From the NCBI GenBank assembly GCA_003210115.1, contig QCNM01000001.1:13510-77509 (forward strand): DNA of 64,000 nt. The letters run 5' to 3'. Source of the stretch: SAR116 cluster bacterium AG-426-A06 (GTDB taxonomy: Bacteria; Pseudomonadota; Alphaproteobacteria; Puniceispirillales; Marisalimonadaceae). This document shows positions 56,629 to 64,000 of the stretch, piece after piece. Numbering within the stretch: the stretch's first letter is position 1; every line of letters starts with the position of its first letter. The notes under the pieces were generated by a model, which saw nothing but the letters and a program-made list of their open reading frames with translations, made no database searches and was not told the origin of the DNA. A program made the translations under genes and the position numbers.

Positions 56629-57366
56629 TCAGCTTAATCTTTTTTTAAAATTTAAGTTAATCCATATTACAAACATTATGAAATATGCGTTTAAAACATA
56701 CCAAATAATTTCAAAAATTGATTTAAATTCATCTAAAAAATTTATGTTTAATGAATTTAAAAGTAAAATAAGTGATATAAATATTAAACCATTAGCAATT
56801 ATAGAGTTTTTTCTTTTATGATATTTATACCTCATAGGATGAATTACTTTAATAGGAATTACCTTTAATACTATTAAAATTACAAGTATAAATAAATTAT
56901 TCCAAACGTTTAAATCTAAAATCGATAAATAAATAATAATAATATTCCAAATAGAAGGAAATCCTATATACAAATAACTTTCAGTCATTACCTTTAAATA
57001 AGAAAATGAAAATAAAGAAATACTTAATATCAGTATCGGCAAAATAATTACAAATTGTTCAGGCACATAATTGAATTTATAAATAATTATACAAGGTATG
57101 AACACGTAGTTTATATAATCGACTATGCTGTCTAGCATTACACCATCAATATTAGGACAAAACTTTTTTACATTATATTTTCTAGCTAAATTTCCATCAA
57201 TGACGTCTATAAACAATGCAATTATAAGAAATAAAAAAGTTAAAAGTTTATCTTCATTTAATATTGAAATTATTGAAAAAAAACTCATTAAAATACCAGT
57301 TCCAGTCAACAAATGTACTAAATATGCTTTAATTACATTAATATTTAGATTTGAGTGTTTTTTCAT
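56629..57366 (-). CDS. pcs: Phosphatidylcholine synthase (CDP-alcohol phosphatidyltransferase family)
   Basis: 245 aa. DVIDGNLARK...DSIVDY motif, plus GFPSIWNIIII and IKVIHPMRYK blocks that resemble rhizobial Pcs. Confidence 0.8.
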   Translation of the reverse strand: MKKHSNLNINVIKAYLVHLLTGTGILMSFFSIISILNEDKLLTFLFLIIALFIDVIDGNLARKYNVKKFCPNIDGVMLDSIVDYINYVFIPCIIIYKFNYVPEQFVIILPILILSISLFSFSYLKVMTESYLYIGFPSIWNIIIIYLSILDLNVWNNLFILVILIVLKVIPIKVIHPMRYKYHKRKNSIIANGLIFISLILLLNSLNINFLDEFKSIFEIIWYVLNAYFIMFVIWINLNFKKRLS

Positions 57367-57430
57367 TATATTAATAATAAAATTAAATCATTTTGTTTAC
57401 AAATCAATTTGTTATCTAATAATAGTAGTT

Positions 57431-58483
57431 ATGAACAAAAAACTTGATGATTGTAAAAAAGAAATATTAAGTGATATTTCAAGAACAATATCCTTTAGGT
57501 TATGTTCTATAGGCGTTGATTTGGGCCTTTTTGAAGATTTATCAATAAATGGTCCCTCATCAAGCGAAGAAATAGCATCTAGAAAAAAATATAATGAAAG
57601 ATATGTCAGAGAATGGCTTTATGGAATTTCAAAGACTGGTTATATAGAATTTGATAGAAAAACCCGAAAAGCGTCAATTAACGATCAGTATAGTGAGTTA
57701 TTTAATAGTGAAGGTGGAAAGAACTCTTTTAAAGGTTTTTTCAAAGTAATTAATAATATGCTACTACCCTACGAAAACTTAATTAGTTCGTTTAAAAATG
57801 GTGGTGGTATAAAATTTGAGGAATATAATAGTGAATTTTGGAAAGGTTTAGACCTTACAGGTTGTTCTAGATATAGATCATTTCTTGTTCCGGAGTGGAT
57901 TGATCAAGTGCCAAACATAAAAGAAAAACTTGATAAAGGTGTAAAGTTTGCTGATTTCGGGTGTGGCACTGGTAGGTCAGCTGTTGAATTAGCTAAGAGG
58001 TTTAAAAATTCTAATTTCTTCGGTTTTGATAAATTTAAGCCAAATATTGAGGAAGCTAAAATCAATGCTGAAGCTGGCGATGTTACGACTAATACTTCAT
58101 TTCAGGTTTGGGATGTAGACAATGGAGGTCCTGATGATAAGTTTGATATTGCAGGAGCTTTTGATTTAATTCATGATTTACCTCATCCACAAGATGGTAT
58201 AAATGTTATCAAAAATTCTTTAAAACCAGGTGGTATCTTTTTACTAATGGATATTAAATGTACTGATGACCCGATTGACAATGATGATCCCATGGCTTTA
58301 TTCAAATTTGGTGCAAGCTTACATTTTTGTATGACAACTTCTTTAGCATATGAGGGTATAGGCCTAGGAACTGTAGGGTTACCCCTAAAAAAAGTTGAAG
58401 AGCTTTGCTTTAATGCTGGTTTCAAAAATGTTAAAGAAATAGATATTAATCACCCAATTAATTCTTTATTTCAAATTAGTTAA
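57431..58483 (+). CDS. Class I SAM-dependent methyltransferase with an N-terminal winged-helix-like domain
   Basis: ADFGCGTGRS motif I. The track ORF (57125..) begins antisense inside pcs; the ATG at 57431 (MNKKLDDCKK) is the plausible start. Confidence 0.8.
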   Translation: MNKKLDDCKKEILSDISRTISFRLCSIGVDLGLFEDLSINGPSSSEEIASRKKYNERYVREWLYGISKTGYIEFDRKTRKASINDQYSELFNSEGGKNSFKGFFKVINNMLLPYENLISSFKNGGGIKFEEYNSEFWKGLDLTGCSRYRSFLVPEWIDQVPNIKEKLDKGVKFADFGCGTGRSAVELAKRFKNSNFFGFDKFKPNIEEAKINAEAGDVTTNTSFQVWDVDNGGPDDKFDIAGAFDLIHDLPHPQDGINVIKNSLKPGGIFLLMDIKCTDDPIDNDDPMALFKFGASLHFCMTTSLAYEGIGLGTVGLPLKKVEELCFNAGFKNVKEIDINHPINSLFQIS

Positions 58484-58578
58484 TTTAAACAATTCAAATT
58501 TCACTCTGCAATCTAGTCTACAAATAATTATTCTTAAATTATTCATTTTGATCGTCTTGATAATAACTTTTGTAAAAT

Positions 58579-58881
58579 TTAATCTTTATTATTTGCTGAA
58601 ACTTTAACTACACCTTCGTAAGCAATTTCCTTAGGTGACAAAGAATTTGGAATACTATTAAATTGAGAAAGATAATTTCTTAACTTTTTCATGTGTTTTT
58701 CGTTTTCATATTCCCATATACTTGTAACTTGATTTTTTTGATCAACATTTTGTATCACTTTCATGTTAATTTTTAAATTAGAATTAGTTGATTCATTTGC
58801 TATCTTTTCTGACATTACAATGAACATATTTGCATGTTCAACACTTTGAAAAGTTCTTACGGTAAGTCTAATTATTGACAT
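58579..58881 (-). CDS. Small 100-aa protein, paralog family member P1 (possible ABM/Dabb-like alpha+beta fold)
   Basis: GAAGGTG lies 5 nt upstream of the ATG. It shares IIRLTVRTF.S.E....MFI ... SIWEYENEKHMKKL ... LSPK with the decayed copy at 59592-59890. Confidence 0.5.
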   Translation of the reverse strand: MSIIRLTVRTFQSVEHANMFIVMSEKIANESTNSNLKINMKVIQNVDQKNQVTSIWEYENEKHMKKLRNYLSQFNSIPNSLSPKEIAYEGVVKVSANNKD

Positions 58882-58897
58882 AAAAACACCTTCGCTA

Positions 58898-58968
58898 TTT
58901 CATCTTAATCATCTGATTTACTTAAATTTTATAGAATAATAATTATTCAGTCTACAATTTGATCTAAG
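58898..58968 (-). promoter_or_regulatory. Conserved intergenic element, copy A (palindrome AATCATCTGATT at 58907-58918)
   Basis: Near-identical to the copies at 61262-61332 and 62601-62668. It ends 14 nt upstream of the P1 start codon. Strand assignment is tentative. Confidence 0.55.
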
Positions 58969-59075
58969 ATTTTAGATAATTTAATTAAGTTTATTAAGAA
59001 AATCATATTGAATTTTTATTGATAATAATAAAATATGAATATGTACAATAATAAATAGTTGTATTGAATTTCAAG

Positions 59076-59378
59076 ATGTTTATAAGAATAGTTACTATAA
59101 AATGTCCAAATGAAAGAGCCAAAAAAGCTTTTAAGTTACTTAATAAAGAAGTTACAGAAGAGCAAATGAAAGTTGGTCTTTTAAAACAAACTACTGTTGA
59201 TGCATCTGAAACAAGTATTGTCTATGTAAAGTATTGGATATCAAAAAAACATTTTGATAAAGGTAGAAAAAATTGGCAAAAAACATCTAGAGAATTTAAT
59301 GATATGGGCGCGATTATTACAGCGGTAGGCGGAGAATCAGAAATTGTCATATCTGACGATTTTAAAAATAATTTTTAA
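59076..59378 (+). CDS. Small 100-aa protein, family member P2 (distant)
   Basis: MFIRIVTIKCPNERAKKAF...SIVYVKYWISKKHFDKG. It has the same length and beta-alpha-beta pattern as P1. The track starts at TTG 59064. Confidence 0.45.
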   Translation: MFIRIVTIKCPNERAKKAFKLLNKEVTEEQMKVGLLKQTTVDASETSIVYVKYWISKKHFDKGRKNWQKTSREFNDMGAIITAVGGESEIVISDDFKNNF

Positions 59379-59591
59379 TTTATGTTAACTTAACTTTATT
59401 TAAATTTTCCATTAGAAGATTTTTTTTAAATTTATAATTTAAATTCGCATTCGTCATCTAAATACTTTGTTGTCAGATGCATCTAAGCTTATTTCAATTT
59501 TTTTTAAAAATTGTTATCTTTAATAATCATAAAGTAATTATTAATTATAAAAGAGTATTTAATGTAATGGGAAGAATACGAAGCTAAAAAA

Positions 59592-59890
59592 AGATTCAGA
59601 AGAGTAATTACCAATACTTTTTTATCAGATGAAGATTGTGAAATGTTTATTATGGTTCTGAAACAACAGTAGCAAAACATATAACTAAATTACCCGATAG
59701 TGAATTAGAAATTACTAGATCGATAGAATCACCAAATATTATTTCTGTAATCTGGACTTTAAAAGATTATAAGCATTTTGATATTTTAGAAAAAATAGGT
59801 AATAAAATTATTAAACCATATAGAAAGAAACTATCGCCAAAATCAACTAGTATAAAAAAAGAATCTCTTTGTAGAATTTTAGGGAGATAA
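59592..59890 (+). pseudogene. Decayed paralog (P3) of the 58579-58881 gene: no start codon and one frameshift
   Basis: Frame a reads RFRRVITNTFLSDEDCEMFIM and stops at 59670. Frame b opens at 59642 and reads GSETTVAKHITKLPDSELEITRSIESPNIISVIWTLKDYKHFDILEKIGNKIIKPYRKKLSPKS...*, ending at 59890. Confidence 0.5.
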
Positions 59891-59922
59891 TGAAAAAAAT
59901 TTAGTTTTTCATTTAAGCTTTA

Positions 59923-60252
59923 TTAAACGGGTGCAGTAATTTTGATTTGAGCAGATGTTGCTTCAGATTCATAGTTATATACAAAAACACCTGCATATTG
60001 GTTTTCTTTAAATACAAAGGTTTTTTTTAAGTCTTCAATAAATTGATTTGACTCATTTTCAAACTTTTTTAATTTATCTATAGTGTTAAATTTAATAAAA
60101 ATTGAAAGGTCGCCTTCTTTACCTATCAATATATTAAGTGATTGAAAATTGAATTTAATTATCTGTTTTCCAAGATTGTCAGAACAAAATGATGCAGCAA
60201 CTTTAGCTTCAGTTATTGATGGAAATTTATATTGGAAAACTTTTGCGTACAT
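59923..60252 (-). CDS. Small 109-aa protein, family member P4 (distant), co-transcribed with the GAF protein
   Basis: MYAKVFQYKFPSITEAKVAASF...LSIFIKFNTIDKLKKFE. Only 10 nt separate it from the upstream gene's stop. Confidence 0.45.
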   Translation of the reverse strand: MYAKVFQYKFPSITEAKVAASFCSDNLGKQIIKFNFQSLNILIGKEGDLSIFIKFNTIDKLKKFENESNQFIEDLKKTFVFKENQYAGVFVYNYESEATSAQIKITAPV

Positions 60253-60262
60253 ATATTACCTA

Positions 60263-61084
60263 TTAAAGCTCGTCTAGCATTCCTTCTATAAGGTCATTAG
60301 CTTGTTTACCTTCAAGTGTGATATTATTCATTATTTTTGTATGTAGCCCCATTTTATCTTGAATTTTTTTTCCTTTATCCGTTAATTCTAACTTTGATTT
60401 TGCATTAATCCTACATAGATTATTTTCAATGAGTATTTCTTCAAAATCTTTTGATATCTCCATTCTGTTACATGCATAAATAAAATTTTTAAAAAAAATC
60501 ATGTCTTTTATACTTGTTTCTTGATTAAAAATATCTAAAGCATTTATTAATCTATCTGAAGTTAATTGTTTTTGGTCACTCATTAAATCTATTTGATGGG
60601 CGGCTTTTTTAATAAGCTTTTCAACTAAGTCAATTTTATCTTGTGATAATTCTTTTATTTTAGAAAATGTCATCATACAAACCATGCCAAGCGCATAGTT
60701 ATTTTTGTCAATGATAGGAAATCCTATATAACTTTTTACACCTTTCTCATTATTATGCGTTTTAGTAATTTCGTGTTTTGTAACATCAAAAGCAATTAAT
60801 GGTTTAGTGTCTAGTAAAACATGAGAACAGACGCTTCCGTCTTTAGGTCGCCGGGTATTTAAATTTTTAATTTTTTCTTCTTTAGACCAACTTTCAGCTA
60901 AGTAACATCGTTCTTTACTATCAAATAACTGAAACAAAACGGCTTCATAACCAGTAATATCTTTAGCTAACTCACAATAGATATTAAAAAGACTTGCTTG
61001 ATTAGAATCTATCAGACCAGTTCTTTCAACTGCTTCAGCTCTTCTTTCTTCATTATCTGGTAATTTTGCAGATATAAACTTCAT
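60263..61084 (-). CDS. GAF-domain protein with a helical, possibly winged-helix C-terminal region
   Basis: 273 aa. N-terminal PDNEERRAEAVERTGLIDSNQASLFNIYCELAKDITGYEAVLFQLFD...SVCSHVL...IGFPIIDKNNYALGMVCMM matches the common stand-alone GAF pattern. The C-terminus has NLCRINAKSKLELTDKGKKI (wing-like). Confidence 0.7.
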   Translation of the reverse strand: MKFISAKLPDNEERRAEAVERTGLIDSNQASLFNIYCELAKDITGYEAVLFQLFDSKERCYLAESWSKEEKIKNLNTRRPKDGSVCSHVLLDTKPLIAFDVTKHEITKTHNNEKGVKSYIGFPIIDKNNYALGMVCMMTFSKIKELSQDKIDLVEKLIKKAAHQIDLMSDQKQLTSDRLINALDIFNQETSIKDMIFFKNFIYACNRMEISKDFEEILIENNLCRINAKSKLELTDKGKKIQDKMGLHTKIMNNITLEGKQANDLIEGMLDEL

Positions 61085-61261
61085 AAAAAATAACTCTTCT
61101 AAAACTAATTAAATCGATCAAATTAAATATTCTAACTTTTATGTTATATATTCATATGATTATTAGAAAATAAATATACAACAAAAACAAGTTTATTAAT
61201 TAAGTACAAATATTTTGCTTTATTAAATTACAAATAAAATTGGTGAGATAAACTCATTTTT

Positions 61262-61332
61262 TTCCATTTTAATCATCTGATTTACTTATTTTTCATATAC
61301 TAATAGTTTTATAGTCTAAATTTGTTTTTAGA
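61262..61332 (-). promoter_or_regulatory. Conserved intergenic element, copy B (palindrome AATCATCTGATT at 61271-61282)
   Basis: TTCCATTTTAATCATCTGATTTACTTA, then 26 nt, then TCTAAATTTGTTTTTAGA. It lies about 175 nt upstream of the GAF gene on the minus strand. Confidence 0.55.
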
Positions 61333-61451
61333 ATGTGTGAAAAATAAAAAAAATATTTTCCATTTTCAGATCTAAAAAAATTAAAAATAGATGAGTATTT
61401 CTTTCTTATTTAGATCTTGAAATTAAGAAAGAATAATATTAAAAATTAGAT

Positions 61452-61592
61452 ATGTGTATTGGTTCAACAAGTATCCTCTCAACATTCTTATTATCACTAT
61501 CATTTGTCATTGTAATTTATAATTATTCAAGAATTAAGAATTATTTGACCAAACAATATACAAAATATTTTCCTCAAAAATCTAAAATTTAA
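61452..61592 (+). CDS. Possible 46-aa single-TM peptide
   Basis: My reading: MCIGSTSILSTFLLSLSFVIVIYNYSRIKNYLTKQYTKYFPQKSKI*. It is below the track length cut-off and has no homology evidence. Confidence 0.2.
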   Translation: MCIGSTSILSTFLLSLSFVIVIYNYSRIKNYLTKQYTKYFPQKSKI

Positions 61593-61614
61593 AACAATCA
61601 GAATAAATTATTAA

Positions 61615-61857
61615 ATGTTAAAAATTATTATTTTTTTAGTTCTTATTTTTACTATTATTTATTTAGTTACAAATTTTATCATGTACAAAAGAAAAAGTGG
61701 TCGTTTAAAGTTGATTATACCTATTGCATTTATATTAATAATTGTAGGGGTTATCTTTTTTATTTTACCAAGGTTTGGACTTAATCCTTTGGTTCTATTT
61801 CAAACTATTATTTCTAAAGTAATTCCATACCTTTCCATGTTAAGAGGTGTTATTTAA
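61615..61857 (+). CDS. Hypothetical 80-aa two-TM membrane protein
   Basis: ORF with two clear hydrophobic helices. Confidence 0.4.
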   Translation: MLKIIIFLVLIFTIIYLVTNFIMYKRKSGRLKLIIPIAFILIIVGVIFFILPRFGLNPLVLFQTIISKVIPYLSMLRGVI

Positions 61858-61883
61858 TGAAAAATATATAAAATACTTATGAG

Positions 61884-62453
61884 CTAAGAAATAGATTTGA
61901 TTTTATTTAGTTTAGATTTTTTAAATTCATTTAAGAAACCCTTTGGCAACTCTATTGCAGTAATTTTCCAATCAATACCTATTCGCTGAAATAATAAATA
62001 TATTTCTTGCTCATCTACCATATGCTTTATTCTAAAAGAATTGTGGTTTTTAAACTCCATTATTTTTATTCCACCTAATAATGTTTTTAAATTAGGTTTT
62101 GGAAGTTTTCTTGCCATTTGATTTTCTTGTAACAACATATTTAAACCTTCTGAATTAACGTATGTGTCTAGAATACTATCTACGATTTTTGACACAAAAC
62201 CTGTAATTAAAACACTTATACCACCTAAATTTTTGAAATCTTCATCTTTTTGAGATTCCTTTAGTAAATTAACATTCAAGTAATTTTTAAGGTTTTCTCT
62301 TAACTTTTTCCATTCAATATATTCTTTGAGTAGTGCCTTATCATTGTAATAAATACCTTTATGAATTTGATGTGTTGAATAAAGAGCTGAAAAGAAATAG
62401 GTAATTATTACTAAAACCGGAATTATTATAAGACTTATGAGTAATTTCTTCAT
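61884..62453 (-). CDS. DUF2939-like membrane-anchored protein
   Basis: 189 aa. An N-terminal TM, then IHKGIYYNDKALLKEYIEWKKLRENLK, which resembles the DUF2939 opening. Confidence 0.55.
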   Translation of the reverse strand: MKKLLISLIIIPVLVIITYFFSALYSTHQIHKGIYYNDKALLKEYIEWKKLRENLKNYLNVNLLKESQKDEDFKNLGGISVLITGFVSKIVDSILDTYVNSEGLNMLLQENQMARKLPKPNLKTLLGGIKIMEFKNHNSFRIKHMVDEQEIYLLFQRIGIDWKITAIELPKGFLNEFKKSKLNKIKSIS

Positions 62454-62600
62454 TAAGACATAATACCAAATTTAATTCTTTAGTAATCCAAATGTTTTTA
62501 ACTTTTTCTGTATCTTTTAAGAATAATTCATATTTACTGCTCATCAAACACAGAATGTTTTGAAGTAATTGTCTTAATGGCGAAGATAATCCTCTTGTTA

Positions 62601-62668
62601 TTCCATTTTTATCATCTGATTTAATATTTTATAGATTTCTAATTGTTCAATCTAGAATTTGTCTAAAT
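62601..62668 (-). promoter_or_regulatory. Conserved intergenic element, copy C (TATCATCTGATT at 62610-62621)
   Basis: TTCCATTTTTATCATCTGATTTAATA ... TCTAGAATTTGTCTAAAT. By my hand alignment it is about four-fifths identical to copy A over about 60 nt. Confidence 0.55.
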
Positions 62669-62870
62669 CAAATCTTTTTCACTATTCATTAGATATAATT
62701 ATAATGAACTACAATTTAATTTTTTTTATAGAAAAAATCGATGTATGAATACTTGATTTTAAAGTGGTTTCAAACTTAAAAAAAAGATAATATAAACAAT
62801 CTTTTATAATGATTGTATTGATGAATGGGAATAAATTTAAAATTTTAAAAGATTGGATTGTTAAAATTAA

Positions 62871-63749
62871 ATGAATAATAAAAATAATGATATGTTAAAA
62901 GCAACCGTTGATGTTATTAAAAATATAAAAAAAAATCTTAGTTTCACATTACTTGAGGTAGGTGCCGCTCAAATTCATCAAGATAAAGAACCTTTTTACC
63001 AGTTACTTGATTATTTTCCTTCTTCTAAAATTATAGGATTTGAATTAGATAAAAAGGTCTGCGACGATTTGAACGTAAATGCTCCCGAAGGAATAAAATA
63101 TTATCCTCACGCTCTAGGAGAATTTAATGAAAAGAGAAAATTATATATTACTAATCATCCTATGTGCAGCAGTCTATATGAACCAAACGAAAAATTAATT
63201 TCATTGTATAATAATTTAGAGGTTGCATATTTAAAGTCAAAATCAACACTAGAAACAATATCCTTAGACCACTTCTTAAAAATAAATAATATAAAATCAT
63301 TAGATTTTATTAAAATTGACGTACAAGGTGCTGAATTGGATGTTTTTAAAGGGGGGAAAAAAATCTTAAAAGATATTTTAAAAATTATTTGCGAAGTTGA
63401 ATTCATTCCTATTTACAAGAACCAACCTCTTTTTGGGGATGTTTGTAATTTTCTCAATGATTATGGCATTATGTTTAATAAGTTTTTAGGTCTTGCTGGT
63501 CGTTGTTTAAAACCTATTACTTTGAACAACAATCCCAATATTGCTTCACAACATTTTTGGACAGATGCAGTGTTTATACGTGATATACAAACTATACCTA
63601 AACTTGAAGACGATAAACTATTGAAACTAAGTTTACTTTCTTCAATTTATGACAGTCCTGACTTAGTTCATTATTGTCTCACTAGCTTTGATAAAAGAAA
63701 TTCCTCATCATTAGCATCTCAATGGATAAATCAATTAAATAATAAGTAG
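62871..63749 (+). CDS. FkbM-family SAM-dependent methyltransferase
   Basis: 292 aa with the DFIKIDVQGAELDVFKGG block characteristic of FkbM methyltransferases. Confidence 0.8.
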   Translation: MNNKNNDMLKATVDVIKNIKKNLSFTLLEVGAAQIHQDKEPFYQLLDYFPSSKIIGFELDKKVCDDLNVNAPEGIKYYPHALGEFNEKRKLYITNHPMCSSLYEPNEKLISLYNNLEVAYLKSKSTLETISLDHFLKINNIKSLDFIKIDVQGAELDVFKGGKKILKDILKIICEVEFIPIYKNQPLFGDVCNFLNDYGIMFNKFLGLAGRCLKPITLNNNPNIASQHFWTDAVFIRDIQTIPKLEDDKLLKLSLLSSIYDSPDLVHYCLTSFDKRNSSSLASQWINQLNNK

Positions 63750-64000
63750 ATTTAATTCAAACATGTATCTTTAATAAAATTTCTATTTGACAAATTTTAA
63801 TTTAATATAAATAGAAAATAGAGCAATAATAATTATAAAATCTAATATTACATCAGGTAAATTTGGTTGATAAGTAGTTTTTAATTAAATTTATTCATGT
63901 CATCTCCAGTACAAAAATTATTCTATAATTAGACTTAATTTATGAAGCTTTATCATCAAATAGCTTGAAAAACTCTTGTCAATAAATTTAGACCCATATA

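Follow-up and report, generated by a model that had tools for sequence, protein, structure and literature searches.

The DNA analysed here, a stretch of 64,000 nucleotides (nt) from the SAR116 cluster bacterium AG-426-A06 (contig QCNM01000001.1, positions 13,510 to 77,509; hereafter the window), contains three copies of an intergenic repeat, designated A, B and C, all borne on one strand. The minus strand is the functional strand of these repeats: read in that direction, the copies lie upstream of the genes for a protein of 100 amino acids (aa), a GAF-domain protein and a DUF2939 protein, respectively. The repeat had been recognised in an earlier note, written from the letters of the window, as three co-oriented copies situated between divergent genes; the sequence bore out their number, strand and coordinates, and divergent open reading frames (ORFs) were found to flank every copy. 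Two measurements needed revision. The unit is ~96 nt long rather than the ~70 nt first given, as seen from the alignment of a wider family (below), and copy A, as then defined, ends 16 nt and not 14 nt before the start codon at 58881. The three intervals and their scores with R1, a sequence-only profile made from 40 copies of other genomes and holding no window sequence at all, are as follows.

58881..58973, minus strand: copy A (69 bits, E=1e-20, model positions 5-97)
61237..61323, minus strand: copy B, ~150 nt upstream of the GAF gene (44 bits, E=7e-13)
62574..62671, minus strand: copy C (53 bits, E=1e-15; nhmmer match at 62576)

The repeats in the window are real and well above chance. The 13-mer common to the copies, ATCATCTGATTTA, has exactly three exact occurrences in the 64 kb, at 58908, 61272 and 62611 only, where 0.01 would be expected, and none of 100 dinucleotide-preserving shuffles reached that count. 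With up to two mismatches the number rises to 12 against 7.4 expected, an unremarkable figure; the signal therefore lies in the exact, clustered copies. In a repeat search these emerged as the top direct-repeat family of the region. R1 placed its matches at 58881-58973, 62575-62670 and 61238-61323, and the shorter offset reported for copy C, by 3 nt, appeared as a 3-nt gap in its alignment to the profile. The next best match in the window had an E value of 0.007. It is a partial copy at 58443-58528 on the minus strand and, save for it, an unfiltered R1 search returned nothing comparable elsewhere in the window. This partial copy corresponds in part to one of three weaker relatives previously listed (58511-58560), with only direct repeats of the TTGTAGACT type kept; the other two, at 59441-59490 and 61356-61376, were not recovered by R1.

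A model-and-scan check, using the profile derived from other genomes, recovered the window copies and revealed a wider family in relatives. The family scan, run on one genome per species with AAATCAGATGATNAANATGNAA as query, returned 113 loci (numbered with the prefix L), about 50 of which are true relatives sharing far more than the query; these come from marine alphaproteobacterial single-cell genomes and metagenome-assembled genomes of ~27-33% GC. Forty non-window copies aligned without gaps over 110 columns, columns 9 to ~104 being conserved and the flanks unrelated, which gives a family unit of ~96 nt. The whole unit is still conserved in 26 copies that fall outside the search pattern. 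In the orientation of the window's minus strand, the consensus reads:

TTGTAGACTAAATTGTAGACTGAATAATTATTAnTCTATAAAATCTAATTAAATCAGATGATTAAAATGRAATAACGAGGAGGTTC[T/C]CTCCGCCA

Copies are 85-95% identical across species and have sharp boundaries; R1 counted 87 of them in the family loci and nhmmer, independently, 81 in 42 sources. The element-bearing genomes number 34, all labelled SAR116 cluster or unclassified low-GC Alphaproteobacteria, and the earlier assumption of a SAR11 setting is therefore probably wrong. SAR11 yielded no copies, the sole match in Pelagibacteraceae being a chance one. Consistent with a SAR116 setting, the window cassettes show ~85% nt identity to those of the SAR116 single-cell genome AG-919-E16 (locus L067); a streamlined low-GC SAR116 subclade (30.55% GC) has been described (PMC8547437). 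Among IMG/VR viral contigs, 11 pattern matches confined to the 22-nt query region were obtained and no true copy, on which ground an origin from a phage or satellite was rejected.

Each unit is made up of an arm and a core. The arm, ~85 nt long, comprises two tandem TTGTAGACT repeats, an inverted third copy overlapping TATAAAAT, and the block AAATCAGATGATTAAAATGRAATAACGAGGAGG. The core, TC[T/C]CTCCGCCA, equals the final 11 nt of tRNA-Ser(GGA) or tRNA-Ser(GCT): the former gene ends in TCTCTCCGCCA and the latter in TCCCTCCGCCA, and the two main variants of the element end in exactly these 11 nt. Further core variants in the family are TTGTCTCC and TTATCTCC. At all four loci with a tRNA-Ser gene (L012, L038, L082 and L086), the tRNA is located upstream of, and co-oriented with, the elements. 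A second arm, ~143 nt long, has the same sequence after two different tRNA-Ser genes and after array junctions. Pairs of TTGTAGAC repeats are found in both arms, including directly before the start codon of an integrase gene (int). Between the arm sites and the core, a palindrome matches the loose consensus of integration host factor (IHF), and AAATCAGATGATTAAAATGG may be a binding sequence for IHF or AlpA. Translated into the terms of phage lambda, and judging by this layout, the element is a P arm plus core and the sequence following the tRNA is a P' arm. We propose that the repeats are, very probably, junctions of the attP/attR type belonging to integrative elements that target tRNA-Ser, and that those of the window sit in a decayed additive island.

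One locus, L082, holds a complete integrative element. It consists of tRNA-Ser(GCT), a second arm whose end, immediately ahead of the int start, is another TTGTAGAC pair, a tyrosine integrase of 393 aa, an AlpA-family ORF (scoring exactly at the Pfam cut-off), a helix-turn-helix protein, an SRA-HNH endonuclease, an arylsulfotransferase-like gene and a copy of the element, beyond which the flank is unrelated. The integrase starts 143 nt after the tRNA-Ser gene; that of L088 starts ~150 nt after an array junction. Both contain PF13356 (Arm-DNA-bind_3), PF22022 and PF00589, from which we infer an integrase of the P4 type, predicted to bind the arm repeats through its N-terminal arm-DNA-binding domain. 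No replication module (primase, helicase or other) was found in L082. As for the cargo of this element, the SRA-HNH pair (L082 4924-5802, plus strand) suggests a modification-dependent restriction enzyme, that is, a defence gene travelling on the element family.

A metagenome scan, in which an alignment of three integrases served as query, returned 80 loci from soils and other biomes, mostly ~40% identical and including one close relative. Sixty of the loci were scanned for tRNAs: all 17 tRNAs found were tRNA-Ser, with GCT, GGA, TGA and CGA anticodons, and 11 of the 17 lay 150-260 nt upstream of int and co-oriented with it. R1 detected the element at none of the 80 loci. These results suggest that the integrase clade is specific for tRNA-Ser and the arm sequence specific for the lineage, both being expected of arm sites that co-evolve with their integrase. 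The relatives at ~40% identity (L127-L185), drawn from soils, sediments, freshwater and marine samples, look like a broadly distributed tRNA-Ser-specific integrase clade.

With this architecture at hand, the composition of the window copies could be read. Copy C is a junction formed by a P arm, a core and the start of a second arm; on the minus strand, the order is TTTAGAC-AAATTCTAGATT repeats, TATAAAAT, AAATCAGATGATAAAAATGGAATAAC, a core remnant TTATCTTCGCCA (62578-62589) and TTAAGACAATTAC, the last resembling the second-arm start TTAAGATAACT. In copy B, likewise a junction, a single arm repeat (TTTAGACT) is left, together with a TATGAAAA box in weakened form, AAATCAGATGATTAAAATGGAA and a core remnant TTATCTCACCA (61241-61251). 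Copy A is a P arm that has lost its core and retains a degenerate repeat plus TTGTAGACT (58949-58957), TATAAAAT (58926-58933) and AATCAGATGATT (58907-58918); the GAGGAGG position has here turned into GAAGGTG, which serves the 100-aa gene (ATG at 58881) as ribosome-binding site. The remaining features of the region are:

58443..58528, minus strand: arm remnant at one edge of the island, in which no more than the direct repeats TTGTAGACTAGATTGCAGAGTGAA can be made out
58579..58881, minus strand: cargo gene, 100 aa, no Pfam family
59064..59378, plus strand: cargo gene, 104 aa, no Pfam family, with an 86%-identical copy in L067
59560..59890, plus strand: probable frameshifted pseudogene, the two frames jointly giving one protein of ~105 aa
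59923..60252, minus strand: cargo gene, 109 aa, no Pfam family
60263..61084, minus strand: cargo gene for the 273-aa GAF-domain protein, not associated with the element in other genomes
61615..61857, plus strand: cargo gene, predicted membrane protein of 80 aa, with a homologue in L067
61884..62453, minus strand: cargo gene, 189-aa DUF2939 protein, whose L067 homologue also stands directly downstream of an element
62871..63749, plus strand: cargo gene, FkbM-family methyltransferase of 292 aa
63881..64000, minus strand: remnant of a second (P') arm at the other island edge (nhmmer match of the P' profile at 63997-63895, E=3e-21)

The arm remnant at 58443-58528 covers R1 model positions 4-76, with low posterior past the repeats; it has an exact TTGTAGACT at 58515-58523 and overlaps the 3' end of a plus-strand methyltransferase gene. 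The P' remnant is homologous to the ~143 nt separating tRNA-Ser from int in other genomes. It contains degenerate repeats, CTGGAGATGAC and the int start ATG (63898-63896), and the int ORF of the window is reduced to 5 codons (63898-63881). Continuation beyond the window could be read from L125, a 6.1-kb contig retrieved by exact-protein match that reaches ~1 kb past the window end: the remnant runs on to ~64035 and is followed by GCCA at ~64036-64039. From the outer end, the order on the minus strand is thus an adenylylsulfate-kinase-like core gene, ~500 nt devoid of ORFs, GCCA and the second-arm homologue with CTGGAGATGACATG; then the FkbM methyltransferase gene (opposite strand), junction C, the DUF2939 gene, the small membrane-protein ORF (opposite strand) and junction B; and finally the GAF gene, the 109-aa gene, the frameshifted pseudogene, the 104-aa gene (opposite strand), arm A and the arm remnant. 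The inventory comes to three junctions, one arm remnant, one second-arm remnant, eight cargo genes and one pseudogene. By these contents, the segment of ~58443-64039 is a decayed, integrase-less island lying on the minus strand.

Few pseudogenes have been reported in streamlined genomes. The one at 59560-59890, read as ...WEEYEAKKRFRRVITNTFLSDEDCEMFIMV / YGSETTVAKHITKLPDSELEITRSIESPNIISVIWTLKDYKHF..., fills the space between the 104-aa and 109-aa genes, which is free of ORFs over an unusual length; it is probably a frameshifted pseudogene and as such fits decay within the island. GC content is 24-26% in the island (window 58000-64000) and ~30% in the rest of the window (range 24-34%).

The distribution of the element in other genomes shows where it stands with respect to genes. 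In all 26 sources with at least two copies, these were on one strand, none of the 39 adjacent pairs being mixed. Adjacent copies were 452-5049 nt apart (median 1751 nt), so that an element recurs every one or two genes. The gene upstream often ends 5-50 nt short of the first repeat. The first downstream gene is co-directional with the element in ~70% of the cases and convergent in ~30%, and some convergent genes end 47-60 nt past the start of the conserved AAATCAG block. Since the element is placed at the seams whatever the orientation of the next gene, it appears to be a self-contained cassette seam and not simply the 5' region of a gene. A comparison of selection in orthologous cassettes was uninformative, the element and its neighbouring gene being equally conserved (~94%).

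Polymorphisms of the arm follow the cassette upstream: identity is 91-98% inside an arm group and 80-87% from one group to another, and a 46-nt stretch beginning at AAATCAG is common to all groups. Downstream flanks re-sort independently; L080 and L106, for instance, combine the upstream cassette of L045 and L110 with the downstream cassette of L041. Because the arm tracks the upstream cassette while the downstream flank re-sorts, the arm would represent the right end of a cassette, and exchange would occur in the core. At L082, the tRNA has TCC and the distal junction TCT; from this difference we infer strand exchange to its right, within CTCCGCCA. Several loci preserve what look like intermediate stages of decay. 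L077 retains a complete arm-core-arm junction, with no more of int left than its ATG plus 5 codons; L006 has a 19-nt partial tRNA-Ser(GGA) followed by a second arm and an int fragment; and L060 has a decayed arm, a core, a second arm and an int fragment.

Deduced from sequence relationships, architecture and co-occurrence, a mechanism can be outlined. A P4-family tyrosine integrase with an N-terminal arm-DNA-binding domain would bridge the arm repeats and the core, probably assisted by accessory factors of the host or the element, as the IHF-like palindrome and the AlpA-like gene suggest, and strand exchange would take place inside CTCCGCCA. Each new integration would restore the tRNA and push older elements downstream; arm-core junctions would stay between the cassettes, all in the orientation of the tRNA, and later deletions would remove integrases and second arms. 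Cassette duplication, one of the origins suggested earlier, had it right that the repeats mark cassette boundaries; their origin would be site-specific integration at the tRNA-Ser end and not duplication.

A distinct kind of rearrangement was seen in three species. At L086 3928-4015, L032 7107-7196 and L085 962-1048, the ribosome-binding site of an isochorismatase-family (pncA-like) gene follows the arm directly, the fusion point being ...GATTAAAA. Compared with L088, ~290 nt including the core have been lost, and the deletion is flanked by TAAAAT microhomology. Such a fusion would lock the cassette in place and keep the arm as its 5' region.

The earlier note had favoured a different interpretation, in which each copy is a sigma-70 promoter (TAGACT-17-TAAAAT) with the palindrome AATCA-nn-TGATT as operator for a dedicated repressor, for example the GAF protein, so that the copies would define a local regulon. 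A good -35/-10-like match with 17-nt spacing is indeed present in the family consensus as well as in copies A and C. The ~70% co-directionality of downstream genes would suit a promoter, and so would two independent deletion variants (copy A and the isochorismatase cassette of L086, L032 and L085) in which the arm has become joined directly to a ribosome-binding site with its ATG. However, ~30% of the downstream genes converge on the element, and upstream genes show the same 70% co-orientation, so the bias is not promoter-specific; in this AT-rich region sigma-70-like matches are not enriched (27 found versus 38 expected); and the palindrome changes on one arm only. The GAF protein is absent from all other arrays, without a single homologue in ~300 kb of arrays from other genomes, and was rejected as the regulator, being a piece of cargo. 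A regulon would, moreover, leave the tRNA-Ser identity and the integrase linkage unexplained. As the primary explanation of the repeats, this layout is improbable.

Action at the RNA level was considered next to it, since the minus strand could specify a small RNA or a paralogous structured 5' leader or riboswitch, its structure being a GGAG-N5-CTCC hairpin between AUG and CAU. In the GGAG/CTCC inverted repeat, 93.6% of cells are paired and 12 cells show double changes, versus 2.2 in shuffles; copies B and C maintain a hairpin by means of other bases (TGAG/CTCA and AAGAG/TCTTC). Yet no Rfam family was matched: searches with the window and 18 canonical loci at the gathering score, and with a 221-nt canonical copy at E<=10, gave only tRNA elsewhere, plus noise. 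Single-sequence folds of canonical and window copies on both strands were no better than those of shuffled sequences (z of -0.2 to -1.8, none significant), the outer helix is weak (77% paired), and a terminator is absent. Furthermore, GAGGAGG is more conserved than its pairing partner, CTCC is simply the acceptor end of tRNA-Ser, and a 4-bp inverted repeat is what one expects of a recombination core at the DNA level. We consider an RNA family extremely improbable. Small reading frames fared no better. The mini-ORFs of the form ATG-GAA/AAA-stop noticed in the window are present there; the candidate was rejected, as the ATG is not kept in the family and is ATT or ATA in many copies outside the search pattern. 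A 15-codon ORF on the opposite strand (MAERTSSLFHFNHLI in the consensus, MAKIILLLFHFYHLI in copy C) was likewise dismissed, start and frame being lost in other members such as L001.

The sharp boundaries and the 85-95% identity across species would also be compatible with a dispersed repeat, akin to repetitive extragenic palindromes or miniature inverted-repeat transposable elements, spread or homogenised by homologous recombination or gene conversion, the tRNA-Ser match being coincidental or ancestral; homologous recombination could then shuffle cassettes at the repeats. Against this stand the lack of terminal inverted repeats and of target-site duplications, and the strict co-orientation within arrays and with the tRNA, which would not be expected. 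The 11-nt identity is located at the 3' terminus of both sequences, with two variants matching two tRNA-Ser isoacceptors, and a tRNA-Ser-specific integrase is linked to the element. These features make a dispersed repeat very improbable. An attC site of the integron type was rejected as well: the integrase is P4-type with an arm-binding domain, and the bottom strand forms three small separate hairpins (z=-1.8).

Several observations weigh against site-specific integration at tRNA-Ser as the origin of the repeats. The tRNA-Ser gene is absent from the window: no tRNA was found either in the 64 kb or over the 1.1 kb that follow, and what precedes the terminal GCCA is non-tRNA sequence, so that the link of the window island with tRNA-Ser is drawn from its relatives. 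The cores of the window are degenerate (TTATCTTCGCCA in C, TTATCTCACCA in B) or absent (A), and in this state the copies could not recombine. Neither circular or excised forms nor empty sites were encountered, the loci of the metagenome integrases included, and mobility, past or present, is judged from comparative patterns alone; homologous recombination between the 96-nt repeats could give the same shuffling of cassettes. Finally, first arms were found in 81 copies versus 8 detectable second arms, and conservation is higher in the first arm than in the core's right half. This asymmetry is unlike simple neutral decay; an additional function of the arm, or a variant mode of cassette movement, is therefore possible.

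Processes other than site-specific recombination have also been at work. The closest relative of the window island, L067 1365-4654 of AG-919-E16 (~85% nt identity to window 58916-62518), has the DUF2939, 80-aa and 104-aa genes in a different order, and the segment with junction B and the genes for the GAF and 109-aa proteins is missing from it. This difference is not that of a clean excision between two junctions, and non-site-specific processes therefore also reshape the array.

The excess of first arms leads to two extensions of the integrative-element explanation. Tentatively, and with rather less than even confidence, the arm may also function as an outward-reading promoter for the next cassette. 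A bolder and more doubtful proposal is that of a working integron-like cassette system with tRNA-Ser as its docking site: cassettes of one or two genes would need only the ~85-nt arm and the core in cis, the integrase would be supplied in trans by an occasional full-size element, and the arm would double as an outward promoter. Unlikely as we hold it to be, this system would explain the 10:1 ratio of first to second arms, the retention of the arm while the right half of the core drifts, and the repeated fusions of the arm to ribosome-binding sites. If it were true, an active system with promoter-bearing arms would make the arrays more interesting than the wreckage of full-size elements.

Comparison with known systems places the element closest to attP/attR sites of the lambda or P4 type. 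Shared traits are tandem arm repeats paired with an integrase whose N-terminal domain is arm-binding, a short core equal to a tRNA 3' end, an int gene adjoining the tRNA-proximal arm, an AlpA-family small gene downstream of int, and an IHF-like consensus between arm sites and core. The family differs in that its arm sequence is new and restricted to low-GC SAR116-type genomes and that most copies are attached to no integrase; the likeness is one of sequence. Tycheposons are tRNA-adjacent islands of Prochlorococcus in which successive integrations are separated by partial tRNAs and degenerate remnants persist (bioRxiv 10.1101/2020.12.28.424599), and in additive flexible genomic islands the terminal 20 bp of a tRNA recur as markers (PMC10872708, PMC4119200). 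Like these, the present arrays occur in streamlined marine or freshwater hosts, next to tRNA genes, with stacked integrations, degenerate remnants, fragmented integrases and accessory metabolic cargo. Unlike them, the repeat unit is mostly an arm of its own (~85 nt) with only 11 nt of tRNA, and the cassettes are very small (median spacing 1.75 kb), mostly of one or two genes. The recombinase, tRNA linkage and cargo of tycheposons have counterparts here, the replication module having none in L082.

Elements that have lost their integration genes and kept their attachment (att) sites, accreting in tandem at the target gene's end as newcomers insert site-specifically, are known as cis-mobilisable elements (CIMEs) and were defined for relatives of integrative and conjugative elements and of integrative and mobilisable elements in Firmicutes (PMC5704250). 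The present arrays resemble CIMEs in the tandem accumulation, at a target-gene end, of elements devoid of integration genes and provided with att sites. They depart from them in that no conjugation or mobilisation genes were seen and that the competence of the window junctions for recombination is doubtful, their cores being degenerate. With integrons, and with clusters of attC sites lacking integron-integrases (CALINs), the arrays share co-orientation, cassettes mostly of single genes, a conserved recombination site at the end of each cassette, an integrase often not nearby, and diverse, poorly annotated cargo. In contrast to those systems, the integrase is P4-type and not IntI, the anchor is a tRNA-Ser 3' end rather than attI, the site is not one imperfect hairpin with R''/L''-L'/R' boxes, and a substantial minority of genes has the opposite orientation. 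The phenomenon is thus already established; what is new is the host lineage, the arm sequence with its profile, the very small cassettes and the preferential survival of the arm.

Streamlined ocean bacteria possess large flexible gene pools and few recognisable mobile elements. How such hosts exchange accessory genes was taken up for Prochlorococcus by the work on tycheposons (bioRxiv 10.1101/2020.12.28.424599); a phylogenomic study of SAR116 mentions neither genomic islands nor integrases (PMC8547437). The present analysis would provide an abundant, uncultured and little-studied low-GC SAR116 subclade with a defined attachment site, a tRNA-Ser target and a cognate integrase clade. The 96-nt profile marks cassette seams in single-cell and metagenome assemblies, making cassette turnover measurable, and both the recombination reaction and a possible promoter activity of the arm become directly testable. 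For the window itself, the segment at 58.4-64 kb is best regarded as a decayed island of horizontally acquired cargo, not as a regulon.

Two further observations concern the surroundings of the island. Adjoining its outer edge, on the strand opposite to the elements, 74 nt of L125 (5185-5258, plus strand; ~window 64086-64159) are ~80% identical to tRNA-Met(CAT) of L083, including the CTCATAA anticodon loop; ARAGORN made no call, and the stretch is either a decayed or an atypical tRNA-Met. At the inner edge, the ORF for a 452-aa Rv2258c-like methyltransferase (57125-58483, plus strand) overlaps the minus-strand gene for a CDP-alcohol phosphatidyltransferase (56629-57366) by ~240 nt. Its true start is probably an internal ATG, because the Pfam domains of the methyltransferase begin at residue 126.

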